NCBI GenBank assembly: GCA_963713825.1
Contig: CAVQNG010000003.1
Location: 448,001 to 512,000 of the forward strand
Origin: an uncultured Acidobacteriota bacterium
Lineage (GTDB): Bacteria; Acidobacteriota; Thermoanaerobaculia; Multivoradales; JAHEKO01
DNA: 64,000 nt
Reading direction: 5' to 3'
Of the stretch, positions 4,665-53,606 are shown in pieces. The first letter of the stretch is position 1. The number at the start of each line of letters is the position of its first letter. The notes under the pieces are model-generated. The model was not told where the DNA came from, made no database searches, and saw only the letters and a list, made by a program, of their open reading frames with translations. A program made the translations under genes and the position numbers.

Positions 4665-4712
4665 GACCTCCGGTTTCCTACAACTGACAACACTCAACAA
4701 CACCTGACCACT
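4665..4712. repeat. Junction J1: partial arm A (ACAAC array)
   Basis: gacctccggtttcctacaactgacaacactcaacaacacctgaccac matches arm A at 40745-40795 and 46790-46840. Confidence 0.75.
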
Positions 4713-4980
4713 GAGGCTGCCCCCAACGCTGGACCGAGGGCTGTGAGAGATTCCCGGTCTAGATGGCCTCATTGTCAAGCATGGCGTCGGTGACGGTGAT
4801 CGCCTGGATAACTCGCCAGAACGCACCAGACGTGGATCATCTCAATCGGTGAGATGCGGTCTGGTGGACCAAGAGCGGACAACGGGCATTGGGTCGTCTC
4901 TTGTTGTCGGGGCATTCTTGTCCGCCTGGTTGGGGCTCCTCGCTGTACCACCGCTGTACTGCGAGACAGTGCCGGCGAAG

Positions 4981-5706
4981 CTATTTGAACACCTCGAGCG
5001 CGAACATCAAGATGCCGAGACCATTGAGCCCGATGTGCAGAACAAGTCCGGGAACCATGCTCCGAGTGCGAGTCGACAGCCACCCATAGACCAGAGCGCC
5101 TGGCACAATGGCGAGGACGTCCCATGGCTTGAACCAATGAAAGCTGGCCCACTGCAACCCGTGGATCCACCATGCCTTCTTGTCGTGTTGAAGCTCCTGT
5201 CGAGGGAGGACGTATCCTCGCCAAAGGATTTCTTCGCTGACTACATTGAATAGGATCAATCCGGTGAACAGGGCCAGACCCGTGAAGTCACCCGAGTGAT
5301 TCACCGTCGCATCCATGCGATAGGGATTCTTCATCCACTCTGGTACGAGGTTGGCAATCGGATTCCGGGTGATCTGCAGGGCGATATACGTTCCGTCGAC
5401 GATCAGAATCCCCAGCAAGACCAGCAGCCAGTCCCGCCTCGAGATGTTCTTGATGCGAAACCTGTCCTTGATGCCGCTCCAGGCAAGACGCCTGCCCTCC
5501 AAGGCGTAGAAGGTCAGTGCCAGCCCTGCTAGCAGCATGAAGAGCATCACGTTGGTCAAGGACAGGGCATCGGAATTCGAGAGACCAAAGGTCGCAGCAA
5601 CTCTGGGTGTCCCCAACGTCAGCAACACGAAGGCAGCTCCACCCAGGCCCAGGAAGAGCGACCAGGATTGCCACAGAGGTAACGGCTTCAACTCCGGATC
5701 CAGCAA
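4981..5706 (-). CDS. CPBP (CAAX/Abi) intramembrane metalloprotease
   Basis: EEILWRG, FHW and LH motifs in a multi-TM protein. Confidence 0.85.
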   Translation of the reverse strand: MLDPELKPLPLWQSWSLFLGLGGAAFVLLTLGTPRVAATFGLSNSDALSLTNVMLFMLLAGLALTFYALEGRRLAWSGIKDRFRIKNISRRDWLLVLLGILIVDGTYIALQITRNPIANLVPEWMKNPYRMDATVNHSGDFTGLALFTGLILFNVVSEEILWRGYVLPRQELQHDKKAWWIHGLQWASFHWFKPWDVLAIVPGALVYGWLSTRTRSMVPGLVLHIGLNGLGILMFALEVFK

Positions 5707-5907
5707 GACTCCCTCCTTTCAGTTTCCAGTAGCCCTACGGGATTACGCCGTCGAAGGATTCAACCGTTCGCACATTGAAGCCGTGCTGGCAGGACCTAGC
5801 CAAGCCCTCGCCCCGCAGGGCCCGAATCCCACCCTCCCTCCGCTTCTCTTCGAGCACCTAGCGTGCCCCAAGAAGGCCCTTCTGATTTCAATCTGCTCGG
5901 ACTTTGA

Positions 5908-6025
5908 TGGCGGAGGGGGTGGGATTCGAACCCACGGACCGCGTGAACGGTCGCCGGTTCTCAAGACCGTTGCACGCATTCCAAACCAGACAAAAGCAGA
6001 CTAATCAGAACCAAGAGAGACCAAC
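5908..6025 (-). repeat. Junction J2: uninterrupted 3' fragment of tRNA-Ser (5908-5969) plus arm A2
   Basis: tggcggagggggtgggattcgaacccacggaccgcgtgaacggtcgccggttctcaagaccg, lacking the 5' acceptor strand and D arm; followed by an AGAC array like 43574-43630. Confidence 0.85.
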
Positions 6026-6029
6026 TGCC

Positions 6030-6290
6030 GCCGGGGGTCGGGTGACCGTCGGCGACGCCGACAGCGGCCGGCAGGCTACCGCCGGCCGTGTGGGCGCTGC
6101 CAACCCCGGCACCGGGCAGTCGGGCTCCGCCGGCTGGGTGCGTGGCGAGGACGGTGCCGCCGTGCGCAAGGGTGACGACTTCTATGCCGGCAAGGATGGC
6201 AACGTCTACCAGCGCAACGATCAAGGGGACTGGAACCAGGTCGAACGCTCGGGCCAAAGGCAGGGCGTCCAGGGGAGGATTCCGCGGCGG
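6030..6290 (+). pseudogene. Fragment of a Gly-rich secreted protein (C-terminal-type region)
   Basis: Codon-like stretch ...DDFYAGKDGNVYQRNDQGDW with no start of its own, trapped between J2 and J3. Confidence 0.45.
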
Positions 6291-6337
6291 CGGCCGCAGG
6301 CGCTGAGGGCCTCGCAACGACATCCGAAGCCGCTCTC

Positions 6338-6523
6338 GAGTGGACCACGGACCTTGAGTCCAAGCTGCTCAATAGGGAGAAAGTGGCGAAGGGGCAGGCG
6401 CGGCGATGCAGTGAAGCCGACTCCTGATGTAGAGGAGCCCCTTGTGGGCTCCCTCGAGAGGGGGCAGGCCCCTGCCCTACAACTTGAATGTCACAACACC
6501 TGACAACGAAGCGACGGGCTTCT
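6338..6523. repeat. Junction J3: arm B end, tRNA CCA stub, partial 50-bp unit, REP, arm A
   Basis: tggaccacgg..ttgagt..ctcaatagggagaaagtggcg as at 53474-53521; REP at 6428-6481; acaacacctgacaacgaagcgacggg. Confidence 0.85.
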
Positions 6524-7371: not shown

Positions 7372-7402
7372 GACCCGGCGCTGGCCGGCCCTGGCCCTCC
7401 AG

Positions 7403-13032: not shown

Positions 13033-13258
13033 GGACCGCGGGCATTGAGTCCCAGCTACTCAATAGGGAGAAAGTATCCCAAAGTGTCAGCGATGTCCTG
13101 AGGTCAATGTGTCAACCATGTCCCGAGGTTGTACACCTTGCGGGCGCCCTCGGGAGGGGGCAAGCCCCTCCCCGTTCACCCTGATAGTCACAACACCTGA
13201 CCACGAAGCGACGGGGCTTCGCGGTCAAGGGGGATTGTTGTGGTCGATGCTCAACAGC
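13033..13258. repeat. Junction J4: arm B end, IS481-like end, partial REP, arm A
   Basis: ggaccgcgggcattgagtcccagctactcaatagggagaaagt; gggagggggcaagcccctcccc; acaacacctgaccacgaagcgacggggcttc...gattgttgtggtcgatgctcaa. Confidence 0.85.
13081..13135. mobile_element. Isolated IS481-family terminal end
   Basis: Reverse complement TGTACAACCTCGGGACATGGTTGACAC...CAGGACATCGCTGACAC: TGT terminus with two GACATnGnTGACAC repeats 25 bp apart. Confidence 0.6.
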
Positions 13259-19550: not shown

Positions 19551-19701
19551 TCCGCATGCGGCTACTGCCCTCTGCCGGTTGCTCCAGGACCGCGAGCGAC
19601 TCCTGAGCTTCTTCGAGTTCCCAACTCCTCGCGCCCTTTCAATAGCAGGATTGTGGAGACACTCGCTTGACCTTTCACCCTCGAAGAGAGATCTTGGGGC
19701 C

Positions 19702-20541: not shown

Positions 20542-20547
20542 GACAGG

Positions 20548-38657: not shown

Positions 38658-39110
38658 GCTATCTCAATCTTCGCGGACCGCTCCCGTGGCTCCAAGATAC
38701 CTTCTCTGGCCAGGGAGACATGTCGAAAGGCCTCACTGATGGTTCAAGAGCCGCCCACAAGGCCCACTGAAATGGACCACGAGTATTGAGTGAACTCTCG
38801 GTGTAGGGATGTCCCTTACGGGCGCCCGCGGGAGGGGGCAAGCTGTACGTTCTCACGACATAGGTAACACTCGTGTATCAGGACATCGGTAACACCTGAG
38901 GCAAGCTAGTGCCTTTAGTAGAGGAGGTGCTGGATGCCCTGGAAGGAGACCGAAGGGAGGCACCCGCGGACCGCGTGAACGGTCGCCGGTTTTCAAGACC
39001 TCCGATCTCCCACAACTGACAACCCTCCACAACATCTGACAACGAAGCGACGGGGCTTCGCTGGCAGAGGTGATTGTTGTGGTCGATGCTCAAGAGTGGT
39101 GGTGAGTTGG
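38658..39110. repeat. Junction J12: long arm B, REP, IS481 remnant, tRNA fragment, arm A
   Basis: B 38658-38801, REP 38802-38843, tRNA fragment 38962-39000, A 39001-39110. Confidence 0.9.
38844..38951 (+). mobile_element. IS481-family left end with first transposase codons
   Basis: TGT terminus, gacataggtaacac/gacatcggtaacac repeats, RBS GGAGG and ATG 38934 giving MPWKET, then truncated. Confidence 0.7.
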
Positions 39111-39211
39111 TGACGCCAAGCTAGTTCCCCCGGGGGAAACCCTGCGATGAAGGGTGTTAGGGTGAGAGTCGAGATTCACCCTGCCGTCAAGCGCGGAGGA
39201 CCGTTGAATCC

Positions 39212-40498: not shown

Positions 40499-40502
40499 AG
40501 CC

Positions 40503-40886
40503 CCACTCGAAATGGACCACCCGTGGACCACGGACATTGAGTGACCAATCGGCCGGCAGGGGCACCGGCCGCTTCACGTATTGGAGATGGCGGAGGGGGT
40601 GGGATTCGAGCACGGAGGGGCAGGTGCGGGGGTGCAGTGCCGGCGACCAACGGGAGCCCAACACGGAGGGGTAGGCGAGGGGATGCAGTGAAGCCGACCA
40701 TCGGGAGGCAACCTTGGGCCGCGTGAACGGTCGCCGGTTTTCAAGACCTCCGGTTCCCTACTACTGACAACACTTCACAACACCTCACAACGAAGCGACG
40801 GGGCCTCTCGGGCAGAGGGGATTGTTGTGGTCGATGCTCGAGAGTGGTCGTCAGTTGTGGTCTAGGGGACCGAGAGTGGACCACGG
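40503..40886. repeat. Junction J13: arm B, GC hairpin, tRNA fragment with two inserts, arm A
   Basis: tRNA fragment 40588-40748 with inserts at 40610-40710; A up to gagtggaccacgg. Confidence 0.92.
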
Positions 40887-40941
40887 ACGCAGCCTTCAGA
40901 TCACAGAGGGATCTCTTCGTGGCGGCTTTACTTGTAGACCC

Positions 40942-41400
40942 CTAGCCTCGGCCGGAGGAGTGTGTTGAGTTCCCATCTTCCTCCCGCGCCAGTCGGCCTG
41001 CGGCAACGTAGGCGGAGATCATCAGAGTGAACAGTGTGATCTTGAGCACGAACACCGGCGCTAGGCTGAGCGCAGAAGTGGTACCAGTCGCAGCTGCCAG
41101 TGAGCCGGTGATACCCAGACCGACAAGAACTGGGAACGCCGTCAGAAGCAGCACCCCACGGCGCTCCACCGGCCGCCGATCGGCCCACAGAAGTAGGAAC
41201 GTCCAGCCGAGCATCAACGAGGCGCCGACACCCATGTCGATTCTGTACTCCAATCCGGGACTGAAATCCGATTTGCCGAAAACAAGGCCCCACAGCGGCG
41301 GGTAGATCATGGCAACGAAGAAAAAGAAGTCAGCGACGGCACCTGTCCAGTAAGCTGCCCTCAACAAGACGACATTCTTTCGAATCATGAGGTCCCCCAT
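40942..41400 (-). CDS. Small four-TM hypothetical protein
   Basis: YWTGAVAD, LMLGWT.LLLWADR.P.ERRG. Confidence 0.7.
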   Translation of the reverse strand: MGDLMIRKNVVLLRAAYWTGAVADFFFFVAMIYPPLWGLVFGKSDFSPGLEYRIDMGVGASLMLGWTFLLLWADRRPVERRGVLLLTAFPVLVGLGITGSLAAATGTTSALSLAPVFVLKITLFTLMISAYVAAGRLAREEDGNSTHSSGRG

Positions 41401-41511
41401 CTGTTCTCCATTCTAACGATGGACCAGGGAAGCCTAGTAGGCTCGGCTTAGGAACGGAATCCAGCATCCCTCGCCGCTAGTTGTCTCGCTCTTGAGAAAG
41501 AGAAACTGATC

Positions 41512-43107
41512 ATGGGTCATGTGTTGAGAACGGGCGCCACGTTAGCAGTGACGATTGTGCTAGCCGGTTGCGGCCAACGCGAGGAACGACAACCGCGGCC
41601 CCAACCCCCAGACGGCGCGGTCGCAGGGGATTTCGACGTAGTCCCCTGTGTTCATGTGGCACGCGACGTTGAGTACCCGGCCGAGTGCGGCACGCTGATC
41701 GTCCCGGAAAACCGCCATGACCAGACCTCCCGCCTGATTGCCCTGCCCGTCAATCGTATCCTCGCCTCGGGCGATGCGCCGGATGAACCGATCTTCCACC
41801 TCACAGGCGGGCCGGGGATGTCGAATATGGCCTACAGCACGGTGGAGTGGTTCCAGGAGAACCACGACATTGTTCTAGTCGGCTTTCGCGGCGTGGACGG
41901 AACGGTCTATCTCAGCTGTCCGGAAGTAACCGAGGCGATGGGCTCCGGGCTGTCGCTGATGAGCCGAAACGGCATGGCGGCCCAGAGTGAGGCCTATGCC
42001 GCCTGCTCCGCGCGGTTGACCGCAGAGGGCATCGATCTGGACGGCTACACGCTCTTGGAAGTCGTTGATGATGTGGAGGCCGCACGTCAGGCTTTGGGCT
42101 ACACACGAATCAACCTGGAAAGCGGCAGCTACGGTACGCGCCTTGCTCAGATCTATACCTGGCGATATCCCGACAAAGTCCACCGCAATGCGATGGTGGC
42201 AGTCAATCCGCCGGGCCGCTTCTGGTGGGACGGAGCGATCCTGGAAGAGCAGATCCTGCGTTACTCGACCCTGTGCGCCGAAGATGAGTACTGCTCCTCG
42301 CGCACCAACGATCTCGCCGCTTCTATCCAGACGGCGCTGGACAACATGCCGGAGCGCTGGCTGGTCTTCCCGGTCGATCGCGACGCGGTGCTCTTCGCCA
42401 CCTTCATGGGTCTTTACTCCACAGATGGCGCTGCATCCACCTTCGACATTTGGCTTGCCGCCGCAGAGGGCGACTACAGCGGCATGGCGTTGGTATCTGC
42501 AGCGCTGATGTTCATGCTGCCGACCGACATGGCCTGGGGCGACAGCGCGTCGAAAGCCGGCAGCGCGGACTATGACTTCGACCCGACAGCCGACTATGTC
42601 GCCGAGGTTACGCCAGATCCCTATCTCATCGGCTCGCCGGGTTCGTCGATGGGCTGGGCCTCGGCGGCCACCTGGCCAGCCAAGAAGATCCCCGATGAAT
42701 ACCGCACGGCACAGCCCTCATCGGTGGAGACGCTGCTGCTCAGCGGCTCGCTGGACGTCTCCACCCCAGCTCAGAATGCCCGGAACCAACTACTCCCCCT
42801 TTTGGAGAACGGCGAGCAGGTCGTGCTTTCCGACTTCGCGCACACCGGTGACCTCTATTATCTCCAGCGAGAAGCGACGCGGCACTTGCTGAGAAACTTC
42901 TTCGCTACCGGGGAAGTGGACGCTTCGCTCTACCAGCCGAACACGGTGAACTTCAAGCCAGACTGGGGCTTCCCACTTATCGCCAAGCTCCTGTTGGGCG
43001 GCGCGGCACTGACGCTGATCATCGTAATGCTCCTGATTCGATTCTTCTTTCGCTTGGGGAGACGAGTGTTGATGCGGCACCAGACTGGAGGGCTCCCTGC
43101 AGGATGA
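41512..43107 (+). CDS. Alpha/beta hydrolase lipoprotein (TAP-like peptidase)
   Basis: LAGC lipobox, CGTLIVPENR, GGPG, GSYG, D..TP, H. Confidence 0.85.
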   Translation: MGHVLRTGATLAVTIVLAGCGQREERQPRPQPPDGAVAGDFDVVPCVHVARDVEYPAECGTLIVPENRHDQTSRLIALPVNRILASGDAPDEPIFHLTGGPGMSNMAYSTVEWFQENHDIVLVGFRGVDGTVYLSCPEVTEAMGSGLSLMSRNGMAAQSEAYAACSARLTAEGIDLDGYTLLEVVDDVEAARQALGYTRINLESGSYGTRLAQIYTWRYPDKVHRNAMVAVNPPGRFWWDGAILEEQILRYSTLCAEDEYCSSRTNDLAASIQTALDNMPERWLVFPVDRDAVLFATFMGLYSTDGAASTFDIWLAAAEGDYSGMALVSAALMFMLPTDMAWGDSASKAGSADYDFDPTADYVAEVTPDPYLIGSPGSSMGWASAATWPAKKIPDEYRTAQPSSVETLLLSGSLDVSTPAQNARNQLLPLLENGEQVVLSDFAHTGDLYYLQREATRHLLRNFFATGEVDASLYQPNTVNFKPDWGFPLIAKLLLGGAALTLIIVMLLIRFFFRLGRRVLMRHQTGGLPAG

Positions 43108-43217
43108 GATCGCAAACTGGCGCGACTGATTGGGCGATCCACGGCCTGACCTGACCCCCTGAAACGAGTCCAGTTGGAGGGTTAGGGAGCCGCGCTTCAG
43201 ACACTTTCAGGCTTCTA

Positions 43218-43725
43218 GGTAGCTATCTCAGTATTCCCGAACCGCTCCCGCAGCTCCGAGATGCCTCTTCTGGCCGCGGAGACATGTCGGAAGGGCTTCC
43301 TGATGGGTTCCGAAGTCCTTCTGAAGGTCCACGGAAATGGACCACCCGTGGACCACGGGCATTGAGTGACCAATCGGCCGGCAGGGGCGCCGGCCGCTTC
43401 ACGTATTGGAGATGGCGGAGGGGGTGGGATTCGAGCACGGAGGGGCAGGTGCGGGGGTGCAGTGCCGGCGACCAACGGGAGCCCAACACGGAGGGGTAGG
43501 CGAGGGGATGCAGTGAAGCCGACCATCGGGAGGCAACCTTGGACCGCGTGAACGGTCGCCGGTTTTCAAGACCGTTGCACGGCTTCCAAGCGAGACAAAT
43601 CCAGACTAAAAGGGACCAAAGGAGACTAATGACCGTCGATCTTGTGGGGAAACATCATTTTGTCTGGTTTTGTCCCGATTGGTCTGGTTTGGGCTCCTCG
43701 GTGTACCACAGGTGTACCACGGGAT
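43218..43725. repeat. Junction J14: long arm B, GC hairpin, tRNA fragment with two inserts, arm A2
   Basis: 43334-43573 nearly identical to 40509-40748, followed by an AGAC/GTCT array and two TGTACCAC. Confidence 0.92.
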
Positions 43726-43783
43726 GTGCACCACCCGAACTCGCCACTTCGGGTCCACACAGCCGCAGAACTGATTCAGGAGC

Positions 43784-44680
43784 CTACTTTGGAAACAACA
43801 GTTTCAGCTGCAATCGTAGCGTCCACGTTTCACCCTGATTCTGCAGGTTGGGTGCGTCGGCAATCCGCGGCTTCGGCTTCTCAACGTTATAGAAGGCCTG
43901 CATCGAAAGGTCCAGGGGCTGCTTGCCCCACTTGACGATCCTGCCAAACCCGCCGCCGAGTGGTACCGTCCATCGGTTGCTGCTCGAGGCCGTCCAGTTG
44001 GCAGTGATCACCGGCACCGACGTTAGGTACCAGCCCTTGTTCAGGTTGTAGTTGATGATGGGCTGCAGCGTCATCAGGTTTACACTCTCGGCATCGTCAT
44101 CCCCTGCGAAGGACCATACATTCTGAACCAGGACACCCAGAACCCAGCTTCCGGGCATGGTCAGCACCACGACGCCGGCTCCGCCCGACCACTTCTCGCT
44201 GGCCCAGCTGTCCTCGGTTGCAGAAGGGAACAGAAAGGACGGCCCGACACCCCAGATGATCTTTCCCGGCTGAGACGGCGAGATGAAACCGGTGTAGCTG
44301 ATGTCTCCCAGACCCGACCGACTGTCACCTACCTCCGAGAAGACCGCCTCTTGATAAATCAAAGGCACGATGCCACGGTTGATCAGGTTGAATTTCTTAC
44401 TCAGACCTACCGGATAGACGGGCTGGATGTTGAGAACGTTCGAAATCGCATCGTCCGGTCCGATACCAAAGCTGGTGTTGTTCTGAAACGGCAGGCTGAC
44501 GAGATTGCCAATCGGGTTCTGCGACTGTTTGGCGAGATCCGACTCACCCTCCTCCTGCGCTGCGGCAGAGACCAAGGAAAACACCAAAGCCAGGACTGTG
44601 GTTACGGTTCCTCTTCGTGCTCTAGTCACACTAGCGACGCGAACCTTGGGCCACCCCCGAACCTCGGGTAGTCTGCTCAC
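43784..44680 (-). CDS. Outer-membrane barrel-like hypothetical ('neuromedin U'-annotated family)
   Basis: LAKQSQNP..L.SLPFQNN, GLGDI, WTVPLGGG, terminal LLFPK; true start probably somewhat downstream. Confidence 0.7.
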   Translation of the reverse strand: MSRLPEVRGWPKVRVASVTRARRGTVTTVLALVFSLVSAAAQEEGESDLAKQSQNPIGNLVSLPFQNNTSFGIGPDDAISNVLNIQPVYPVGLSKKFNLINRGIVPLIYQEAVFSEVGDSRSGLGDISYTGFISPSQPGKIIWGVGPSFLFPSATEDSWASEKWSGGAGVVVLTMPGSWVLGVLVQNVWSFAGDDDAESVNLMTLQPIINYNLNKGWYLTSVPVITANWTASSSNRWTVPLGGGFGRIVKWGKQPLDLSMQAFYNVEKPKPRIADAPNLQNQGETWTLRLQLKLLFPK

Positions 44681-45933
44681 TGCTGTTTCTCGTTGAGTCC
44701 AAACTGCTCGTTGACCTCGTCATATATGGGCTGAATCACGTCCTTCATGTCGTATTTGCCGCCTGCGATCATGTCCGAATAGGGGATCATGAGACTTGGA
44801 TCGGGCACCAGCGGCTCCTTGGTGGCCGGAGGTGGCCAGACGTCTTCATCAACAACTGCCATCCGTACGCGAATGTCGTCCTTGGTTATGTTCCACACCA
44901 TGTAGTCCACGGAAAGGCTCAGCGGACCCTCGTAGGTAGTTCGGATGCGAGCACCGACGTCAGGTCCGATGTCCCAATCATTGAAGAAGTGATATGCGAC
45001 CGCCATCCGCGGCTTGATGATCGACATCATCTTGCCAAACGCCTCTGGTGCGGTGTGGATCTGGGTAGCCACCGATAGAGCGCCTTGTGGTGTGAACTTG
45101 AACCTGTCGATCATGGCCGGTACGGGAATGAAACACTCGTGAATCGCCAGGTCGGCGCCCTTCGCATACTCCGCGTACCACTTGTTCGGATAAGTATCAC
45201 CTCCGAACACGAATTTGAGATCGTTCCACTCGACGATGAAACTCACTGGACCATCCAGGGAATGGATGGCTGGGATGGACCGAATCGTGACGCCGTTCTC
45301 CTGATAGATGATCTCATTCACGCCCTTGTAGTCGAACTCGGTAACCTCAAAAGGTACATATCCGCGTGGATCGGTAATTCCCTTGCGGCCATCGAGGTCC
45401 CAGGTGAGCGCCTTGTACAAATGATCCAGCGCGTATTTCGTGCCCCTCTCCGGTGTATCACCGCTCGGACCCCAAACGCGTAACGGTCCCTGGCGGCCGG
45501 ACAACGCGCCACCGACAAACAGTGCATCCAGATCACCGAAGTGGTCGGTATGCAGGTGGCTCAGGAAGACCTTGTCGAGGAAGTTGTAGGGGATTTGTAG
45601 TGCTGCGATCCGCTCTGCCGATCCGGTGCCAGCATCGAATACAAACTTGTCACCGTTCCCCAGTTCGAGCAGCCAGCACGACGCCGCTTGTTTCGGACGA
45701 GCCGTTGGCATGCCAGTGCCACAGGCAATCAACCGCATTTCGTCCGGACCCAGTGCCTCGCTGTTTGGCGTATAGAAGTCGCGCTCGCGGGGTTCGATCG
45801 GAGAAATCTCCTCCGGTGGAGTCGCCGCTACGAGAGAAATGAAGCCTACGGTCGCAGCCATGCCGACTGCGAGCCCAGCCACGAACGTGAACCTCTTTGC
45901 TCTGCCTACTCTCATTTTTCGATTCCGCATCAT
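44677..45933 (-). CDS. Secreted MBL-fold metallo-hydrolase (RNase Z/arylsulfatase AtsA-like)
   Basis: CGTGMP, DAGTG, SHLHTDH, GDT, HE, H motifs. Confidence 0.85.
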   Translation of the reverse strand: MMRNRKMRVGRAKRFTFVAGLAVGMAATVGFISLVAATPPEEISPIEPRERDFYTPNSEALGPDEMRLIACGTGMPTARPKQAASCWLLELGNGDKFVFDAGTGSAERIAALQIPYNFLDKVFLSHLHTDHFGDLDALFVGGALSGRQGPLRVWGPSGDTPERGTKYALDHLYKALTWDLDGRKGITDPRGYVPFEVTEFDYKGVNEIIYQENGVTIRSIPAIHSLDGPVSFIVEWNDLKFVFGGDTYPNKWYAEYAKGADLAIHECFIPVPAMIDRFKFTPQGALSVATQIHTAPEAFGKMMSIIKPRMAVAYHFFNDWDIGPDVGARIRTTYEGPLSLSVDYMVWNITKDDIRVRMAVVDEDVWPPPATKEPLVPDPSLMIPYSDMIAGGKYDMKDVIQPIYDEVNEQFGLNEKQQ

Positions 45934-45999
45934 CAACCTCCTGCCGCTTCCCATGCGGCGACAACCAACACCAGATGTGTTCGTCTGAGCCTGTATTAT

Positions 46000-46015
46000 T
46001 AGACGCCGGCGTATA
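46000..46015. promoter_or_regulatory. Putative TetR operator
   Basis: Palindrome tagACGCCGGCGTata between the divergent hydrolase and TetR genes. Confidence 0.45.
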
Positions 46016-46052
46016 GTATCATTTGTGTACGCAATCGTCTAGTAATGTTAGA

Positions 46053-46622
46053 ATGCACCTCGTGTCGTCCAAGAACAAACAGCCGCGAAGGAAGAAGGAC
46101 GACTGGCTCAGAGCGGCCCTTGAGGTGTTTGAGAAAGAAGGTATCGAAGGGGTCAGGGTGGAGAGACTGGCGCGGGATCTCAACGTGGCGAAGAGCGGCT
46201 TCTACTGGCATTTCAAAGACCGTGATCAGCTGTACGACGAGTTGCTCGGACTCTGGGAACAAGAATCCACACTGGACGTGACGACGAGCGACGCGACTGT
46301 CTCTCTACCCCCCGCGGACCGACTCTTGCGAACGGCCTACCTGATCTGGGTACACGACCTCACGCGTTTCGATCTGCCTTTCCAGGCCTGGGCTCAGAGA
46401 GACCCCAAGGTTCTCGACCGGGTGCATCAAGTCTACGAGCAGAGGCTTTCCTGGATCCGACAGATGTTCCGCGAGCTCGGTTTCAAGGGCGAAGACCTCG
46501 AGATGAGGACCCGCTTCTTCGTCGTCTACCACGCCTGGGAGCGTACCGTGTTTCCGCAGCTGCCAAAGGCTCAGGCGAAGCGACTGATCAAACGACGGGT
46601 GGATCTGCTCGTTCACCCCTAG
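46053..46622 (+). CDS. TetR/AcrR family regulator
   Basis: GVRVERLARDLNVAKSGFYWHFKDR HTH. Confidence 0.92.
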   Translation: MHLVSSKNKQPRRKKDDWLRAALEVFEKEGIEGVRVERLARDLNVAKSGFYWHFKDRDQLYDELLGLWEQESTLDVTTSDATVSLPPADRLLRTAYLIWVHDLTRFDLPFQAWAQRDPKVLDRVHQVYEQRLSWIRQMFRELGFKGEDLEMRTRFFVVYHAWERTVFPQLPKAQAKRLIKRRVDLLVHP

Positions 46623-46681
46623 GCCGACCGCTTTGTTGCTCCAGTGCTCCACTGCTTCACTGCCGGGTGGGCGGGCGGGAA

Positions 46682-46930
46682 TGGCGGAGGGGAAGGGATT
46701 CGAGCACGGAGGGGTAGGCGCGGGGATGCAGTGAAGCCGACCATCGGGAGGCAACCCTTGGACCGCGTGAACGGTCGCCGGTTTTCAAGACCTCCGATCT
46801 CCCACAACTGACAACACTCCACAACACCTGACAACGAAGCGACGGGGCTCCGCTGGCAGGGGGGATTGTTGTGGTCAATGCTCAAGAGTGGTGGTTAGTT
46901 GTGGTCTAGGGGACCGAGAGTGGACCACGG
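46682..46930. repeat. Junction J15: tRNA-Ser 3' fragment with one 50-bp insert plus arm A (attR-like)
   Basis: Identical to 53517-53577 apart from the insert at 46704-46753; complete arm A follows. Confidence 0.92.
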
Positions 46931-47178
46931 GGCGTCCTGAATCCCTTCAGAGTCAGGCGACATCTGCTCCGACCAGCCAACCAGCGAATGCTGCGTGCCC
47001 GCTCCTTCCTTGTGTGGCATGAGGTGACGTGTGCCTGCCCGATCCAGAATTAGGCCCCGGATTCGGCCCAAGCCTCGCTCGGCAGACGCCAAGTTGACAG
47101 AGCCTAGGCGACGGGTCTCGGCGACACCATGCTGCTCATGATGGTGGCTTCCAATTCTGGCATTGCGAGGGGCTTCCT

Positions 47179-48486
47179 TCAATCGAACAGCCCTGATCTT
47201 GCGAGCTGCCTGGCGATACGCGGCATTTCATCCATCCGCCCTGCAGTCTTGGTGCCGAACCACGCAACTACCAATTCCTTCGACGCAGACACGTACAGGC
47301 CTTGCCCGCCGAATCCACTCTTGAAGAAGTCGCCGTCAGAGGTGACGACGTCCCATTGGCGGGTACTGTGGTGGAACGACCCATCACCGAGATCTTCGTT
47401 GTGCCAACGCCTTTGCTCTTCGGTGGTTAGCTCGGGTCGACCGGCTTCTTGGATGTTGTCGAGATAGGCATCAGACACCACAGGATTCCCCCCGGCGCGC
47501 CCCTTCGGAGTGAAGAGCATCCCGTAACGAGCCAGATCACGCAAAGTGCTGCTGAACCCTCCCCCGGAAAAGGAGTTGCCGTGGGCCGTGGCAGTGATGA
47601 ACGCGTCGGACTCAGCACCTGTGCGCCGCCAGATCTCACGCTCGACAAAGTCAGAGAAGCGCTCCCCCGAGACGGCCTCCACCAACCCATTGAGGATCTC
47701 GGTATTCACCGAGGTATAGTCGAACACCTGACCGGACGGCGCACCCCGAGACATCTGTGCGACGGTGTTCATTGGGTCGGCCAGAACTTGGTCAGTCTCC
47801 GGCCACCCGAAGGCGTCGTAGAAGGCCCAGAAGCACGAGTCGGGCTCATATTGAACTTCCGGGCAGTCGATCCCGGACGCCATGTCCAAGATGTCGATGA
47901 CCGGAATGCCTTCCCAGGCGGTCCCGGCGAGGGGTTTGAGATAGGAGTCGATGGGCCGGCTCACATCGATGCGCCCGCGGTCCTCCAGAATCGCCATGGC
48001 CGTCGAGACCATGGTCTTCGAGACCGAGAACCAAACATGTCTGTCGGTGGGCAGCATCCGCGGATAGGTCTCGAAGACGATCCGCCCATCGTGGACGACC
48101 AGCGCTCCGTCCACTGCAGAATTCTCCGCGTAATCCGCCAGAGTCATTTCGCCCGCCTCCACCGATACCGTGACGTTCCCGATCCCTGCGCCGGGGTCCA
48201 CGGGAAGCGACCTGATGGGCCCGTTCCGCCTGAGTACGATCTGTGGCCAGAATTCCGACATGTGTAGGTAGACGTAACGGGTGAAGTCCCCGCCCTGTGA
48301 CCACTCGGAGAAGGTGGGATCGAAGCGTCGATGGATGTCCCTCACCTCCTCCAAGGTAAAGAAGCGCTCGGCCTCCGATAGGGCGGAGGTGGAATCCACC
48401 ACCTCGCTGTCAGAAGCCGCCGGCTCCGTGGCTGGCATACATCCGACTGCCAGGACAAGGACGAGTCCGGCCATTGGCTGCTTCAT
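47179..48486 (-). CDS. Serine hydrolase, beta-lactamase family (aminohexanoate hydrolase-like) lipoprotein
   Basis: AVGC lipobox, FSVSK, YTSVN, GFGGQ. Confidence 0.88.
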   Translation of the reverse strand: MKQPMAGLVLVLAVGCMPATEPAASDSEVVDSTSALSEAERFFTLEEVRDIHRRFDPTFSEWSQGGDFTRYVYLHMSEFWPQIVLRRNGPIRSLPVDPGAGIGNVTVSVEAGEMTLADYAENSAVDGALVVHDGRIVFETYPRMLPTDRHVWFSVSKTMVSTAMAILEDRGRIDVSRPIDSYLKPLAGTAWEGIPVIDILDMASGIDCPEVQYEPDSCFWAFYDAFGWPETDQVLADPMNTVAQMSRGAPSGQVFDYTSVNTEILNGLVEAVSGERFSDFVEREIWRRTGAESDAFITATAHGNSFSGGGFSSTLRDLARYGMLFTPKGRAGGNPVVSDAYLDNIQEAGRPELTTEEQRRWHNEDLGDGSFHHSTRQWDVVTSDGDFFKSGFGGQGLYVSASKELVVAWFGTKTAGRMDEMPRIARQLARSGLFD

Positions 48487-48534
48487 TGTCTCAAGCTCCC
48501 AGAAACGGCTCCACCTACGCTGCTACGAGAGGCC

Positions 48535-48705
48535 GCATAACGGATCCGCCCATAACCTGCAGGCTTCGCCGCGTAAGAGTTGGCGAGAAGATACCACCCC
48601 GGAGCCAGGCAGCTAGAGCGGCCTTCTCGGCGACAGCCGAGACGAGGTCGCGGAATTCACTCCCAACTCGTCAAGCGGCCTGTAAGGTTCAGGGGCTTGT
48701 TATGC
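48535..48705 (-). mobile_element. Integron attC site (long)
   Basis: Minus strand GCATAAC...TGAACCTTACAGGC / GCCTGCAGGTTA...GTTATGC; the ORF stop TAA lies inside the R'' box. Confidence 0.7.
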
Positions 48706-49161
48706 GGCGGACGACGTAGCCATCTCAGATCTCGCGACGAGGTACGCGAGGTAGAACATTCGGAGAAACGAGATCATGAAAACCACGGACAGCACGATCA
48801 GCAGGGGACCGTAGGTAGGATCCTCGGCCAAGGGTCTACGTCCCTCGGGAACGAATCTGTCGAGACCAACGGCGCCGAGAAGACTGAAAAACGAGAGAAT
48901 ACGATTTGTAGCGACAGCCTTGCGTCTTCTGGATGCAAGCTGAGATGACTCATTCGGCCGGACGGGCGACGCGAACACCGGAAGCAAGAAGGGAATCCCG
49001 AGCGCCGCTGGAAGCCACCAAGCCGGGTTCTCACCTGGTATATCGACTGCAAGGGGGACTGCGCCCAAGAAGACAAGGAAGAGCCCTAGCGAGCCTGAGG
49101 CGATACGTACGGGCAGGCCAATCGGCGAGTTGCTTTTAGCCACCAAATGAGTCCGCCGCAT
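48700..49161 (-). CDS. Integron gene cassette, four-TM hypothetical protein
   Basis: ATG lies within GTTATGC of the upstream attC and TAA within GCATAAC of the downstream attC. Confidence 0.7.
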   Translation of the reverse strand: MRRTHLVAKSNSPIGLPVRIASGSLGLFLVFLGAVPLAVDIPGENPAWWLPAALGIPFLLPVFASPVRPNESSQLASRRRKAVATNRILSFFSLLGAVGLDRFVPEGRRPLAEDPTYGPLLIVLSVVFMISFLRMFYLAYLVARSEMATSSAA

Positions 49162-49292
49162 AACGCCCTCGGGCTAACCGGCGCCGCCAACGACGGTACC
49201 GGGAATCTCGATTGATTGAACTGGTCACTTGCAGAGTTTACAACCGCTCCCGCAACGCGACGGGCGGCGTCCGGTTCAGCGAGTTGTTAGAG
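49158..49292 (-). mobile_element. Integron attC site
   Basis: Minus strand CTCTAAC-N7-TGAACCGGACGCCGCC ... GGCGGCGCCGGTTAGC...GTTATGC, an imperfect inverted repeat. Confidence 0.8.
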
Positions 49293-49427
49293 GGCACCTC
49301 AGAACACGTAGTCGACAAAACCAACAACGGCCGCGCCAACGATGGACAGAATGAGCGCCAGCCAGAGGGAGGAACGAGCCTCATGGATTCTGACGCCCGG
49401 CCGGAGGAGCACGATGATGGTGTCCAG

Positions 49428-49919
49428 CTACTGAACGGCGCTGGACCACGCTGTGGTGTCGCCAGACTCGAAGCCGTCGGCGAAGACCCTGGTGATGGGC
49501 GGACAGGGCAGTGTGGCCGCGCGGACCACCTCCAAGCCGGTGCCCTCCACGCGGGCCGCTTCGGCTACGGACAGAGCCTCGGGATGACAACCGTTCCGGA
49601 CTTGGAGGTCTACCAGAGTTACCAGAGCTCCCGATCCGACCACCTGCACCAACCCCTCGATGATCGGCGTCCCGGCACCCGGCCCAGTGATCGTCAGGGA
49701 ACGAGGCACGTGGATCGACTCCGCATACGTCTGATCGACCAAGTCGATCTGGGTGCAAGCAAGATCGTCCACGGCCGCCTGAATCGTGAGGTGAGAGCCG
49801 GGCACGGTGCAGGTGATTGCTCGTACAGGGACCCGAGCCATCAGAACCAGAACCAGAACCAGAAACAAGACTGGCCTGACGAGGGGAGGTAGGGACTGCA
49901 GCGTTCGTCGCGTGCGCAT
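49428..49919 (-). CDS. Secreted protein with C-terminal FADGFESGD tail
   Basis: Signal peptide, VPG...TIQAAVD (beta-helix-like start), VFADGFESGDTTAWS. Confidence 0.7.
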   Translation of the reverse strand: MRTRRTLQSLPPLVRPVLFLVLVLVLMARVPVRAITCTVPGSHLTIQAAVDDLACTQIDLVDQTYAESIHVPRSLTITGPGAGTPIIEGLVQVVGSGALVTLVDLQVRNGCHPEALSVAEAARVEGTGLEVVRAATLPCPPITRVFADGFESGDTTAWSSAVQ

Positions 49920-49923
49920 CGGA

Positions 49924-51288
49924 CTATTGGCTGGCGCAGTAGAGATCCACGGTCACCGTGGAGGATCCTAGGGGGTTGAACGCACCGCACGCCCACCCCG
50001 TCGGCGGTAGACCGGCTCCAGCACTGGTCGGTGCGCTGTTGATCAGGGTGGCCGAGCCCGGGAAGGCCGTACATCCACCGGTCCAGACGATGCTGCCAGC
50101 TGGGCATGCTACGGAACAGCTGAAGGTGCCGCTGCAGGAAACGTGGGTCAGGGTCGGTTGTCCACAAACCCAGGCGGAGCCGTTCCAGTGAACGACCTGA
50201 CCCGGGCCACAGGACAGGCTTGCCAGGGTATCGGTACCCGTGCTGGCGCATACCCAGGCTCCTCCATCCCACTGTGCCACCTGTGTAGCGGCGCAGGAGA
50301 GGCCGCCCAGAGTGTCGTCGTTCTCGTCGGCGACACATTGCCAGGTCGCGCCATTCCACTTGGCGATCTGTGTTGGGCTACAGGCGAGAGATCCAAGTGT
50401 GTCGCTATCGGTCAGGGTGGTGACAACGTCGGCGCCATCCACTTGTAGGGTCATCGCGCCTGTACCGGAGTTGCGGATGTCGAACGTCTGATCGCTGCCG
50501 GAGGAGCGATCCAGTGTCGACTCGGTCAGTCCGGCGTCGGGTGCAACACCGTCTCCCCGCAAGAGCAAGTCGGTGGCATCTGCGGTGTTCTCCGCCGACA
50601 ACCCGGCGCCACCGGGCGAGCTGCTGATGCCTTCAACGCCGTAGGTCTCACCCGTTGGATCGGAAATCTCACCGCGAATGGCCGCGATTCCCGTCCCCTC
50701 TGGCGCACTGGGACCAGTACCAGCCTCGCCAGCTGCAGCCCCAAGCTCCAGAGTCTTTGTCCGTGGTTCCCTTTCCTCGCCTGCTACCTGCGGTCCCAGC
50801 GGGTCTGCCTCGCCACGTTGCGCACGTTCCACGTAGAGGTTGAGAACGTCGAGAGCCGCTTCGACCGCTGCCACCGTGGGTCGAGCGCCGACCGTAAACA
50901 TCCGGGGATCGGCCCACTTCGACGGCACGTCCTCGGCGAGAGCTCGTAGCGTCCAGGCATAGCTCCCTCCTGGCTTCAAGCATTGATCGAGAGACGGGGT
51001 CCACCCTCGGGCCGCTCCAGGGACCGTCACGCGAAGGACAGGCTCTACCTCCTCGACCCCTACACTTCGAGGCAGCTCCTCGGCGGAGAGCCGATAGATC
51101 ACCAGCTCAAAGGAGGTAGCCCTTACATCCGAGCCCCAGTTGAACGTGGGGCAGTGATCAGCGATTTCTACGCTTCTTTGGGAGTCACCCGGTGAGACCA
51201 ATTCAAGTGGCAGGCTTGCGCCCTGCGCCCAGGGGCTAGCGAGAAACAAGACGAGTGAAGGCACCAGAACTCGGCATGCTGTGTTCAT
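49924..51288 (-). CDS. Secreted protein with Cys/Trp (W(N/D)GxxWxC) repeats
   Basis: Signal peptide; three DTLxxLxCxxxQxxxW(N/D)GxxWxC repeats. Confidence 0.7.
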   Translation of the reverse strand: MNTACRVLVPSLVLFLASPWAQGASLPLELVSPGDSQRSVEIADHCPTFNWGSDVRATSFELVIYRLSAEELPRSVGVEEVEPVLRVTVPGAARGWTPSLDQCLKPGGSYAWTLRALAEDVPSKWADPRMFTVGARPTVAAVEAALDVLNLYVERAQRGEADPLGPQVAGEEREPRTKTLELGAAAGEAGTGPSAPEGTGIAAIRGEISDPTGETYGVEGISSSPGGAGLSAENTADATDLLLRGDGVAPDAGLTESTLDRSSGSDQTFDIRNSGTGAMTLQVDGADVVTTLTDSDTLGSLACSPTQIAKWNGATWQCVADENDDTLGGLSCAATQVAQWDGGAWVCASTGTDTLASLSCGPGQVVHWNGSAWVCGQPTLTHVSCSGTFSCSVACPAGSIVWTGGCTAFPGSATLINSAPTSAGAGLPPTGWACGAFNPLGSSTVTVDLYCASQ

Positions 51289-51452
51289 CTTGAAACTCCT
51301 TTACTGTGGTTCTTCCGAAGACAGAGCAGAAAGTCCAATCCGTCGCAGATTCACATCCGCGGTAAACGCCGAAGCAGCAGTCTTCTCTCCGATCCTACCT
51401 CGCTCGACAGCGGCTGAGATGACGGCGCCCTCCAGTCACTTTGCGGCCTTAC

Positions 51453-51712
51453 CTAGATGCGCCTAATGCAGTCATCTAGACTCTGTTTCACCTGATGTTC
51501 CCAGATCCGGATGACCGTCCACCCTTTTCGTCTGAGTGACTGGTGGTTTCGCCGATCTCGCTTTCGGTTCCCCACGATCTTTGCCTGCCACTTCGGAGAC
51601 AGGGTGTCTTTCCACGAAGGGAATCGCCAGCCGTGCCAGAAATCACCATCCAGGAAAACGGCAACCTGTTCCACCCTGAAGACGATCTCGGGCTTTCCAG
51701 CTAGGTCACCAC
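51453..51712 (-). pseudogene. vsr: Vsr very-short-patch repair endonuclease, N-terminally truncated
   Basis: LAGKPEIVF...VFLDGDFWHG...W..KI..N..RD...GWTVIRIWEH; N-terminus replaced by unrelated sequence. Confidence 0.75.
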
Positions 51713-51829
51713 CGTGCTTCTCGAGCTCGCGCCAGAACTCGGGCTCGGCGAGCAGGTCCTCCATGAAGGCCGCAGGGTCGATGATGGGCACCACCTATTG
51801 GTCTGTTGAGGGGTGGGTAGCGTTACAGG

Positions 51830-53179
51830 CTAGGGGTCAGAACTCGACCAAGCCGACGTGTCGCCCGACTCGAAGCCGTCCTGAAAGATCCAAGACGATT
51901 GGAACATCCGAGCTTGGATGCTCGTTAGATCATCATCGGTTCCAGGCGATCTCCAGCCTGACCAAGCCACGACAAACCTTCCTCCAGGCCCAGGAGCTAT
52001 CGCCGGATTCCGCTGGCCGTCTGTTGTGTAGCTGTTGACCTGAAAATCGCCTGTAAGGGGAGTGCTGTCTGCCTTGAACTCTCGCCCAAGGATCCCCGAT
52101 GAATCAGTATGAGGTGGCCTACCGTAGTGATGCCAAACAACGACGAACTCTCCATTCGGTCGCATCGCAATTGGCGAGGTCACCTGATACTGGGTCGTGT
52201 AGTTGCTGACCTGGAACTGTTGCCCGAGAGGCTCGCCCTCATTGTCGAATCGTTGTGCCTGGATCGTCCAGGCCGAGGTGTTGACGCCATAGAACGATGT
52301 CCAGGTCACCACGAAGTCACCAGAAGCGTCTGCGCCAATGTACGGGGCGGTTTGTACATGATCAGTGAAGGAATTGACCTGGAAGTCGCTGCCTTGAGGT
52401 GTTGTATCCGACAAGAAGCGGCGAGCTTGAATGCTCTGCCTCCAGTTATCCGACCCGTAGGACCCGTCACTAGTCCAGGTGACCACGAAGTTTCCTCCAG
52501 CGTCTGACGCTACCTGCGAATTTCGCTGCGGCCCGGTAGTGTAGCTGTTCACTCGAAACTCGCCCCCCATTGGCGTTCCATCTGACTGGAACCGCCGACC
52601 CTGCACGCTCCGGTCCGGGTCGGTTCCAAAGCCTCCTCCTGACCAAGTCACAACGAATTGACCATTTCCTTGACTCGCAGCCGCAGGGCAGCATTGGCTG
52701 CCGGTTGTATGGCTATTGACCTGGAACTCACGAGAGTCGTGGGGGGCCCAGGGTCTTACGACACGACCCTGGATGCTGAAACTGTCGGTATCGCTTTCAA
52801 ACGAGCCTTCACTGTGCCACATGACAATGAAATTGCCCGACTCATCCGCAACTGCATGAGGGAATGCCTGGGCACCTGTTGTGTAGGTATTGAGCTGAAA
52901 CTGGCTTCCCATCGGCGCGCCTAGAGCATCGAACCTCTGGACCTGAATGCTGTAGTCGTCTATGTCCGTTCCAGCGGAGCCCTCGCTCTGCCAGGCAATG
53001 AGAAAGCTCCCGTCGGGCGCTACCGCCACGGAAGGAAACCACTGCCAACCGGTGGTGTAGGTGTTGACCTGGAAATCATCACCAATTGGAACCGGCCCCT
53101 GAGCGGTCAGAGTAGAGGATTGGCAGAGCAGGAGACTCGCGCCCAGTAGGTTCGAGAACTTTCGGAGAAGGTGACGCAT
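51830..53179 (-). CDS. Secreted repeat protein (FQVNxYT repeats) with FQDGFESGD tail
   Basis: Seven roughly 58-aa repeats FQVNTYTT..Q..P....GxFVVxW; terminal IFQDGFESGDTSAWS. Confidence 0.8.
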   Translation of the reverse strand: MRHLLRKFSNLLGASLLLCQSSTLTAQGPVPIGDDFQVNTYTTGWQWFPSVAVAPDGSFLIAWQSEGSAGTDIDDYSIQVQRFDALGAPMGSQFQLNTYTTGAQAFPHAVADESGNFIVMWHSEGSFESDTDSFSIQGRVVRPWAPHDSREFQVNSHTTGSQCCPAAASQGNGQFVVTWSGGGFGTDPDRSVQGRRFQSDGTPMGGEFRVNSYTTGPQRNSQVASDAGGNFVVTWTSDGSYGSDNWRQSIQARRFLSDTTPQGSDFQVNSFTDHVQTAPYIGADASGDFVVTWTSFYGVNTSAWTIQAQRFDNEGEPLGQQFQVSNYTTQYQVTSPIAMRPNGEFVVVWHHYGRPPHTDSSGILGREFKADSTPLTGDFQVNSYTTDGQRNPAIAPGPGGRFVVAWSGWRSPGTDDDLTSIQARMFQSSWIFQDGFESGDTSAWSSSDP

Positions 53180-53342
53180 AGGCAGCCCAACAACGACCCA
53201 GAGTCCATGGTGGCACGAGGCCACACAAGAGTCAGTGATCTGCGCTACCGCTTTCGCAGGACTCTCTGCTCGCCGTCTTCCGGTGGGAATGATCCGGGGA
53301 GGCCAGTCTTTCCCCTTGCCCTCCCTGGACTTCTGACCTCCG

Positions 53343-53516
53343 GGTAGCTATCTCAATATTCGCGAACCTCTCCCGTGGCTCCGAGATACCGCTTCTGGCC
53401 ACGGAGACATGTCGGGGAGCTTCACTGGCAGTTCAGGGGTGCTTCTGAAGGTCCACTCCAAATGGACCACGCGTGGACCACGGACATTGAGTGATCGGTA
53501 CTCAATAGGGAGAAAG
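53343..53516. repeat. Junction J16: long arm B directly 3' of the intact tRNA (attL-like)
   Basis: Homologous to 43218-43368 and 38658-38792; aatggaccacgcgtggaccacgg; attgagt-N7-actcaat hairpin. Confidence 0.9.
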
Positions 53517-53606
53517 TGGCGGAGGGGAAGGGATTCGAACCCTTGGACCGCGTGAACGGTCGCCGGTTTTCAAGACCGGTGCTTTCGACCACTCAGCCAC
53601 CCCTCC
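53517..53606 (-). tRNA. tRNA-Ser(TGA)
   Basis: GGAGGGG/CCCCTCC acceptor stem, CCGGT-CTTGAAA-ACCGG anticodon arm, long variable arm, GGTTCGAATCC, GCCA end. Confidence 0.97.

Follow-up and report, generated by a model that had tools for sequence, protein, structure and literature searches.

An array of integrase-less gene blocks separated by attP-like junctions at a tRNA-Ser gene of an uncultured Acidobacteriota bacterium

A tRNA-Ser(TGA) gene of an uncultured Acidobacteriota bacterium is adjoined by a row of unrelated gene blocks, separated by 16 homologous, co-oriented junctions that combine pieces of the tRNA gene with two conserved arms, and this row contains no recombinase gene. The stretch analyzed here (the window, 64,000 nt) covers positions 448001–512000 of contig C3 (1.9 Mb) in the source genome G000 (5.4 Mb in 38 contigs, about 61% G+C); coordinates below are window positions unless a contig is named. 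We hold, with moderate confidence, that the array arose by tandem accretion of integrase-less modules bounded by attachment (att) sites, catalyzed in trans by a recombinase encoded elsewhere; the anatomy, the confinement to one locus, the common direction, the lack of recombinase genes, the turnover of cargo and the core breakpoints are direct observations, whereas the enzyme, its trans mode of action and any present-day activity are what we infer. In many free-living bacteria, islands of variable content anchored at tRNA genes are a main reservoir of accessory genes, and the way genes enter recombinase-free islands is still debated. The locus is an unusually clean case: about 16 att junctions keep both arms, recombinase genes are lacking from the arrays of six genomes and from the proteins scanned on 28 environmental contigs, shared cargo is far more alike between species than the backbone is, and breakpoints fall at the anticodon-loop core. 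Its setting is a poorly studied phylum (class Thermoanaerobaculia) in sediments, as the public runs holding the stretch are sediment metagenomes.

All 16 junctions listed by an earlier sequence-only reading are homologous to other junctions, according to both a repeat finder and direct reading, and all have the same direction, exactly as that reading had claimed. Three modules recur: a B arm of approximately 150–170 nt, a 3' fragment of tRNA-Ser(TGA), and an A arm of approximately 140 nt; a hairpin of the repetitive extragenic palindromic (REP) type and a 51-nt unit are frequent additions. Matches between junction copies reach E-values of 1e-45, local identities among arm copies of the window are about 79–94%, and the outer ends of both arms are sharp (19 A-arm and 8 B-arm copies from six genomes). 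Short motifs are repeated within the arms (ACAAC four times, GTTGTGGTC twice, as well as GGACC..GTGGACCAC), and TGGACCAC is found in 17 copies in the window, on the + strand without exception; by appearance, the arms look like arrays of protein-binding sites. The order B arm, REP hairpin, tRNA fragment, A arm, previously proposed for every junction, holds as far as the shared modules and their orientation are concerned, but not as a complete set: the B arm, the tRNA fragment and an A-type arm stand together only at 29172, 38658, 40503, and 43218. Junctions 33801 and 36217 are B-arm remnants of about 45 nt, and junctions 4665 and 31502 consist of the A arm alone. A second arm type, A2, is present at junctions 5908 and 43218 and also in metagenome contigs L035 and L051.

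The arms are almost confined to this locus, as genome-wide searches (BLAST, and nhmmer profiles at E<1e-3) demonstrate. With the A arm at 46790–46935 as the BLAST query, 10 of 10 matches in G000 fall inside the window, all on the + strand; a profile built from 19 A-arm copies yields 10 of its 11 matches there, again all +, the eleventh being a decayed half at C25:519437. For the B-arm profile, nine of 12 matches are in the window, all +, the others being one sequence present on both C14 and C38 and a weak match 52 kb leftward. Neither method finds an A-arm or B-arm copy to the right of the tRNA-Ser gene in G000, so that the one-sidedness asserted earlier stands. The hairpin module behaves otherwise and had been wrongly counted as a part of the junction: it gives 46 BLAST matches, 38 of them outside the window and on both strands, and is a generic genome-wide REP element unrelated to the arms.

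Apart from the weak match, the only B-arm copy outside the array is the one shared by C14 and C38. This copy (C14:89600–89737 and C38:12282–12419, the C38 sequence being the reverse complement of the C14 one) follows a gene ending in ...DGFESGDTSAWS, which belongs to the same family as the window gene at 51830–53224. The latter encodes a 464-aa protein with no match to a Pfam family, and contains at 52022–53076 a 26-nt direct repeat spaced by multiples of about 171 nt (168–174, once 342), which corresponds at the protein level to a tandemly repeated unit of about 57 residues (FQVNSYTTG...FVV.W).

The sole tRNA gene of the window, tRNA-Ser(tga) at 53517–53606 (Rfam, 63.9 bits), is intact and lies on the minus strand, hence its 3' end faces lower coordinates, that is, the array. 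Partial copies of this gene in direct orientation are found within the array at 5908, 29370, 38962, 40712, 43537, and 46682/46753. A fuzzy search with the 20-nt core of the anticodon arm (up to three mismatches) yields 11 sites in the genome, eight of them in the window, all + and with the live gene included, compared to a mean of 0.8 sites for ten shuffled cores. The geometry supports serial integration at the tRNA gene: a B arm abuts the intact gene (53344–53606), B-core-A arrangements are internal, and a displaced 3' half sits close to the far end. The latter is the fragment at 5908, a contiguous tRNA(1-66) without a B arm. Its T stem, GTGGG/CCCAC, is the variant found in the live gene of the relative G003, where this gene is 94 nt from rsgA, while the live gene of G000 has the compensatory variant AAGGG/CCCTT; moreover, the sequence upstream of 5908 is similar to the rsgA–tRNA spacer of G003. 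The fragment lends independent support to integration into the tRNA gene, in which an incoming element brings a new 3' half and pushes the old one aside.

Elsewhere in G000, at C1:146140–146300, a pseudo tRNA-Ser(TGA) with the exact 20-nt core adjoins a tRNA-Thr gene. A sequence resembling the B-arm end (CTACTCAACTAGGAGAAAG) stands before it and GTGGTCCAC, inverted, after it, so that this place may have been another attachment locus, now decayed.

The boundaries of the moving unit can be seen where two arrays share the block on one side of a junction and not on the other, and three such pairs are informative. Window positions 40380–41000 and locus L059 (loci with this type of label are on contigs of relatives or metagenomes) are near-identical through a hydrolase gene, the B arm, the 51-nt units and the core up to ...CAAGACCTCCG; past the core the A arms are about 88% identical, and nothing is common beyond the A-arm outer end. 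From 38698 onwards the window matches L063, with unrelated left sides: here homology begins at a diverged tRNA-Ser-like core and continues through the A arm (about 89%) into the cargo (96% over the 250 nt scored). Between two relatives, G003 and contig C177 of G004, homology begins exactly at the A-arm start. As homology switches at the core or the A-arm start, the unit comprises the A arm, the cargo, the B arm, and the 3' part of the tRNA, and the point of exchange, insofar as sequence comparison can place it, is in or beside the anticodon stem-loop.

The array is a feature of the genus. With a junction as the query, all five same-genus genomes studied (G001–G005, making six with G000) give several matches each, co-oriented within each contig, and in G003 and G004 the arrays are next to tRNA-Ser. 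The 35 genomes searched from other genera match through the tRNA core only, except for one 60-nt partial A-arm match in G009; a pattern scan of a species-representative collection finds the A arm only in three members of the genus and in one small, differently labelled contig. A scan of metagenomes yields 38 loci, of which 28 have arms; the other ten match by chance within coding regions. All five relatives possess the right flank, at 75–85% DNA identity, and in G004 it is syntenic.

The content of the array differs widely between species. Roughly summed, each relative shares about 4–33% of the G000 cargo, a small and different part in each case, and the majority of the relatives' array proteins have no homologue in the window; the junctions are the same and the cargo is mostly different. 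The shared blocks are 92–99% identical in DNA across species, compared to 75–85% in the backbone, which implies that cargo has moved between species after their divergence. For example, identity to G004 is 99.06% over 33822–38056 (genes of an S46 peptidase, a GNAT protein and a TPR protein); for blocks 3 and 4 it is 92–97% in G005 and G004, and three genomes have the MFS transporter gene at about 97% identity, though in different contexts. Environmental contigs also reproduce the arrangement of the window: L055 covers three junctions with their four blocks, ordered as in the window, and L046, L049, L054, and L059 span other adjacencies.

Forty-two genes (19 plus, 23 minus) were called between 4665 and 53343 with a simple codon-usage caller, and the blocks hold from one to six of them. 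The cargo is composed of ordinary accessory functions, represented in Pfam by a CAAX protease, an outer-membrane barrel with a histidine kinase and a sigma-54 regulator, a TetR regulator with an ABC transporter and an M1 peptidase, a methyltransferase, the MFS transporter, an amidohydrolase, DJ-1, NUDIX, BLUF, and DoxX proteins, an arylsulfotransferase, the S46 peptidase, GNAT and TPR proteins, alpha/beta hydrolases, metallo-beta-lactamase-fold and serine beta-lactamase-fold proteins, and a Vsr-like endonuclease. The blocks at 19364, 38658, and 29172 are only 1.2–2.7 kb long and have a single gene and well-kept arms. Among the unclassified array proteins, an HExxH motif is present in the 437-aa L014_423, and L022_4018 resembles, by eye, an adenylate-forming enzyme.

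Mobility genes are absent from the array, in agreement with the sequence-only reading. The Pfam scan of the window took in 50 of 55 called open reading frames (ORFs; the five left out include one of 62 aa inside the array) and identified no integrase, transposase, replication or transfer domain; the unclassified array proteins have no recombinase-like match in NCBIfam or PHROGs. A six-frame search with PF00589, which reads through stops, gives five matches in G000 and none in the window, and in G001–G005, 18 matches and none on the 13 array contigs examined. No recombinase was seen by Pfam among 30 array proteins from relatives and metagenomes, and a phmmer search with four of G000's own recombinases against 374 array proteins yields no match. 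For serine recombinases (PF00239), G000 has one weak match, at C3:1339, far from the window, and G004 has two, neither of them on an examined array contig.

Taken together, these features are consistent with an additive island of at least about 53 kb anchored at tRNA-Ser(TGA) that would have been built by repeated site-specific integration. A module would consist of the A arm (P'-type), one to six accessory genes, the B arm (P-type), and a copy of the tRNA 3' part, and strand exchange would occur in the anticodon stem-loop core (...GGTCGCCGGTTTTCAAGACC...). With exchange at this point, each insertion would rebuild the tRNA, push the prior 3' part inward, and leave an attP-like B-core-A junction. 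The enzyme would be a tyrosine integrase encoded elsewhere, either by a helper element or by an unlinked gene. Later events would then have blurred many junctions: insertions of REP hairpins, entry of the 51-nt unit into the T loop, loss of sequence between the GTGGACCAC repeats that both arms contain, and homologous recombination or gene conversion between arms. The locus thereby offers defined substrates (B-core-A) and a prediction (circular A-cargo-B molecules) for the movement of integrase-less modules in trans.

A number of observations weigh against trans accretion, or at least against its being the only process. No integrase could be linked to the arms, leaving without a counterpart the recombinase flanked by such arms that had been suggested as a check; of the earlier claim that two-arm units with cargo were stacked by a recombinase in trans, the unit and its geometry are borne out by the core breakpoints, and the enzyme is not. 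The only tyrosine recombinases found in all members of the genus are XerC/XerD-like, and G001 (91% complete) has just two tyrosine recombinases. Nineteen junction pairs with common right-hand cargo have A arms 83–100% identical, and for non-identical pairs in different left contexts the values are about 83–95%, with a background median of 84%; the A arm is thus only loosely co-inherited with the cargo, which indicates that arms are also reshuffled by homologous recombination or gene conversion. Identity between G000 and G004 drops from 99% to 91% somewhere between 38056 and 38251, in or near the end of the TPR gene and off any junction, where the G004 contig ends. In G003 the tRNA is beside rsgA, whereas G000 has a core remnant to the left of this gene, hence a rule that the newest block is next to the tRNA needs a further rearrangement, or rsgA as cargo. 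In viral contigs, three scans with A-arm, B-arm and core+A patterns found no match. Finally, contigs and reads of public runs show no clean excision or circle joint, and this evidence is ambiguous: in four runs compared with 33700–53650, joints at junction repeats have sides of only 20–44 nt or extra letters between, and such joints can stem from other junction copies or from tRNAs of other organisms, while a single joint that goes back, from 53415 to 36224 (side 94), may reflect a fuller B arm of another strain. Read depth suggests that the main populations of two runs lack 47–53 kb and that a third run has it, though holes in depth alone prove nothing.

The same facts can be read in other ways. 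The junctions may be scars of former att sites whose only present role is to provide about 360 bp of portable homology, letting species gain, lose and exchange blocks by RecA-dependent crossovers after foreign DNA is taken up, without a dedicated recombinase. This would fit the lack of a recombinase, the mosaic arms and their loose link to cargo, the identity step away from any junction, the deletion-like appearance of junctions 33801 and 36217 (between GTGGACCAC repeats), and the MFS gene, which moved as a 1.35-kb segment without arms. However, homology switches at the tRNA core or A-arm start in three of three informative comparisons, arm copies with about 79–94% identity are poor substrates for homologous recombination, and the multiplication of junctions and the displaced tRNA halves with alternative functional T stems would be left unexplained, so that we consider such exchange rather unlikely as the main cause. 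The loose arm–cargo association, the step in the TPR region, the armless MFS move, and the short junctions do show that homologous recombination or gene conversion also shapes the array; if scars and homologous recombination were all there is, the locus would be a well-documented but ordinary additive island. Ordinary decay, with blocks as remnants of autonomous islands, prophages or integrative elements that all lost their integrases, seems quite unlikely to us. Tandem decayed elements are common at tRNA genes, a review describes, in its cited part, decay to cis-mobilizable elements (CIMEs; PMC5704250), and the cited part of a study of tycheposon-shaped islands reports fragmented integrases and scattered partial tRNAs (10.1101/2020.12.28.424599). 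In the array, on the other hand, no integrase fragment turned up in about 53 kb or on the 13 array contigs of five relatives, the scanned array proteins are likewise free of recombinases, phage, replication and transfer genes are absent, and several single-gene units of 1.2–2.7 kb retain well-kept arms.

A different crossover site has also to be considered, an approximately 33-nt sequence GGTCCAC-GGAAA-TGGACCAC-CC-GTGGACCACGG, which is present in the B arm, with a related form at the A-arm outer end, and consists of an inverted repeat with a 6–7-nt spacer, accompanied by a direct repeat. In form it resembles the core site of a tyrosine recombinase; it is the sole content of the short junctions 33801 and 36217, contains the motif seen 17 times in one orientation, and could be used by an Xer-like host recombinase, the only type seen in all members of the genus, with the tRNA pieces as passengers. 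Yet homology switches at the tRNA core instead, the tRNA halves and alternative T stems are what tRNA-targeted integration predicts, and a repeated motif equally fits arm-type binding sites; we judge this variant very improbable. Repeat-driven misassembly or chance similarity is next to negligible as an explanation: short-read assemblies of the relatives do break at junctions, but no two junction copies need be confused, given their differences, the contig has a length of 1.9 Mb, the E-values are far from chance, and independent metagenome contigs reproduce the adjacencies. In the opposite direction, a bolder form of trans accretion can be envisaged, namely a genus-wide gene-capture platform resembling an integron and derived from tRNA att sites, in which modules never carried a recombinase, each of them has the full equivalent of an attP (B arm, anticodon-loop core and A arm), circles form between any two junctions, pass between species and are re-inserted at the tRNA or a junction, and one unlinked enzyme (either a dedicated integrase that the genome bins lack, or XerC/D) does the work; this we offer as a tentative possibility, rather doubtful at present.

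Among known systems, the locus belongs with additive tRNA islands, tycheposon-shaped islands, and CIMEs, and is not an integron. In additive flexible genomic islands, described in the cited part of work on Alteromonas (PMC5217437), cassettes are added and removed beside tRNA genes by site-directed recombination. The locus resembles them in its fixed chromosomal site beside a tRNA, common to the relatives and with a conserved flank, in recurring copies of the tRNA end, in strain- or species-specific gain and loss of cassettes, and in the site-directed recombination invoked; it differs in that the repeats there are bare 20-bp tRNA ends, whereas here attP-like junctions of up to about 360 nt have two conserved arms, number at least 16, and have no recombinase gene in the island in six genomes. 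In Prochlorococcus tycheposons, as presented in the cited sections of that source, successive integrations at tRNAs push older elements inward with partial tRNAs between, and the defining feature of the elements is a recombinase of their own (tyrosine or large serine), usually joined by a replication module (10.1101/2020.12.28.424599). Cargo elements at tRNA genes, full and partial tRNA copies, and niche-related accessory genes are common features, as far as that part of the source goes; its islands contain fragmented integrases, whereas we see neither such a gene nor a fragment, and the host is a sediment acidobacterium.

CIMEs are, in the cited part of a review, elements with att sites at both ends and no genes for integration or transfer; they accumulate in tandem and represent decayed integrative and conjugative or integrative and mobilizable elements beside a related functional element (PMC5704250). 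The blocks resemble them, within the description given there, in being att-bounded (as the three core breakpoints and the sharp arm ends indicate), in lacking integration and transfer genes, and in standing in tandem at the 3' end of the target gene, and like CIMEs they would be movable only with the recombinase of another element; here, however, there are about 15 units in a row, many with a single gene, and no helper in tandem. The sets of attP-like junctions are more complete, the units more numerous, and the absence of a recombinase gene or fragment across the genus more thorough than in the known kinds. Work by Pavlovic in 2004 and by Bellanger in 2011 is said to treat CIMEs and tandem accretion. 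Chromosomal integrons are similar in having a long co-oriented array of gene units with homologous sites between them and content varying among close relatives; the integron-like function proposed earlier is nonetheless an analogy and no more, as intI, attI and Pc are all lacking, hairpins of the attC type do not make up the junctions, the cargo consists of often multi-gene blocks in both orientations rather than cassettes with mostly one promoterless, co-oriented ORF, and the site derives from a tRNA gene. Of the REP/REPIN type is the hairpin module only, and the arms behave otherwise. The A arm as a structured RNA or attC-like hairpin was considered and dropped because the consensus fold of 29 copies has no covariation (term -0.15), with a double change in only one of 23 pairs.

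The left end of the array deserves separate description. The start at 4665 assumed earlier does not hold, as a decayed anticodon-arm core with two mismatches of 20 is present at 443–462 (+), an older junction to the left of rsgA (3482–4609, +), the single-copy gene of G000 for the ribosome small-subunit GTPase. With this remnant, the array starts left of 4665 and a housekeeping gene, rsgA, sits inside the variable island; as suspected before, the array probably extends past the left edge of the window, to a boundary a few kb outside it. The A arm is found beside rsgA in G003 and G004 as well: in G004 the gene is located between an A arm and a full junction, and in G003 the intact tRNA adjoins rsgA, with A-arm junctions beyond it. 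DNA identity of rsgA to G003 and G004 is 93–94%, compared to about 79% in the backbone, and at five loci of other genera rsgA is not found in the 1.5-kb flanks of tRNA-Ser.

Individual junctions, all on the + strand and numbered from the left, are composed as follows. Junction 1 (4666–4715) is the proximal A arm with a degenerate core; in junction 2 (5908–6033) the displaced tRNA half (66 nt, 91% identical) is followed by the A2 arm at 5970–6033. Junction 3 (6337–6523) combines the B-arm end, a partial 51-nt unit, REP, and a partial A arm, junction 4 (13033–13258) the B-arm end, REP, and A-arm profile positions 22–98, junction 5 (19365–19561) B-arm positions 68–149, REP, and a partial A arm, and junction 6 (20545–20756) B-arm positions 32–82, REP, and A-arm positions 11–92. 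In junction 7 (23608–23725) a degenerate piece of the tRNA acceptor and T arm is accompanied by the 51-nt unit and REP, with no A arm. Junction 8 (29155–29545) is complete, with the B arm, REP, tRNA(1-22), the 51-nt unit, tRNA(22-61), and the full A arm, and junction 9 (31505–31639) is the A arm with an alternative proximal part. The two short junctions are junction 10 (33798–33843), where the B-arm GGTCCAC..GGACC site and the A-arm outer end form a hybrid (GAGTGGACCACG) that we read as a probable deletion derivative, and junction 11 (36209–36255), the B-arm site GGTCCACCGAAATGGACCACCCGTAGACCAC alone.

Complete again are junction 12 (38658–39110), with the B arm, REP, an insert of about 100 nt, tRNA(23-61), and A-arm positions 1–111, and junction 13 (40496–40885), with the B-arm end, a small GC hairpin, tRNA(1-22), two 51-nt units, tRNA(25-61), and the full A arm. 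Junction 14 (43219–43640) has the full B arm, a hairpin, tRNA(1-22), two 51-nt units, tRNA(25-66), and the A2 arm; junction 15 (46682–46929) has tRNA(1-22), the 51-nt unit, tRNA(22-61), and the full A arm, with no B arm; and junction 16 (53344–53516) is attR-like, a full B arm that directly meets the live tRNA gene at its 3' end. In 38600–47000, a scan for promoters and terminators gave counts no higher than in shuffled controls.

Two integrase genes of G000 were considered as possible helpers, and neither could be tied to the array. The P4-type integrase at C25:523102–524457 is beside tRNA-Lys and is not linked to tRNA-Ser; CCGTGGACCAC is located 27 nt upstream of its start and the decayed A-arm half is 4 kb off, which is suggestive only. 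For the integrase at C35:202–1548 no link to tRNA-Ser or to the arms was found. It has GGTTACCAC direct repeats upstream, and its 22-kb contig (C35:1–21934) is 99.9% identical to G003:C173 (L073) over 6 kb, reflecting either a very recently shared mobile element or cross-binning. No helper element was found in tandem with the array.

The 51-nt unit (CACGGAGGGGCAGG..GCGGGG.TGCAGTG..) splits the tRNA fragment in the T loop in many junctions, and six loci (L043, L044, L048, L052, L053, and L061) have a clean B arm, contiguous tRNA(1-61), and A arm without it. The unit always abuts T-loop sequence (window 40593–40717 and 43418–43545), and is also present beside two other tRNAs: at C3:92270–92500 tandem copies of the T-loop-to-CCA part with the unit follow a tRNA, and at C5:195074–195138 an inverted copy is directly after tRNA-SeC. 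It may represent a second family of attachment sites, directed to the T loop, or a miniature insertion.

The 27-nt GC hairpin CGGCCGGCAGGGGCGCCGGCCGCTTCA, probably another small REP-like family, is found in two junctions (40550–40576 and 43375–43401) and twice in the conserved right flank (56051–56077 and 62626–62652). Another dispersed repeat, CGCCGTCCCCC..CGGGCCACCCGGA(T/C)GGACCTCC, is located at C3:1485060, C3:1528869, C3:1700916, C4:338635, C5:497260, and C25:27221.

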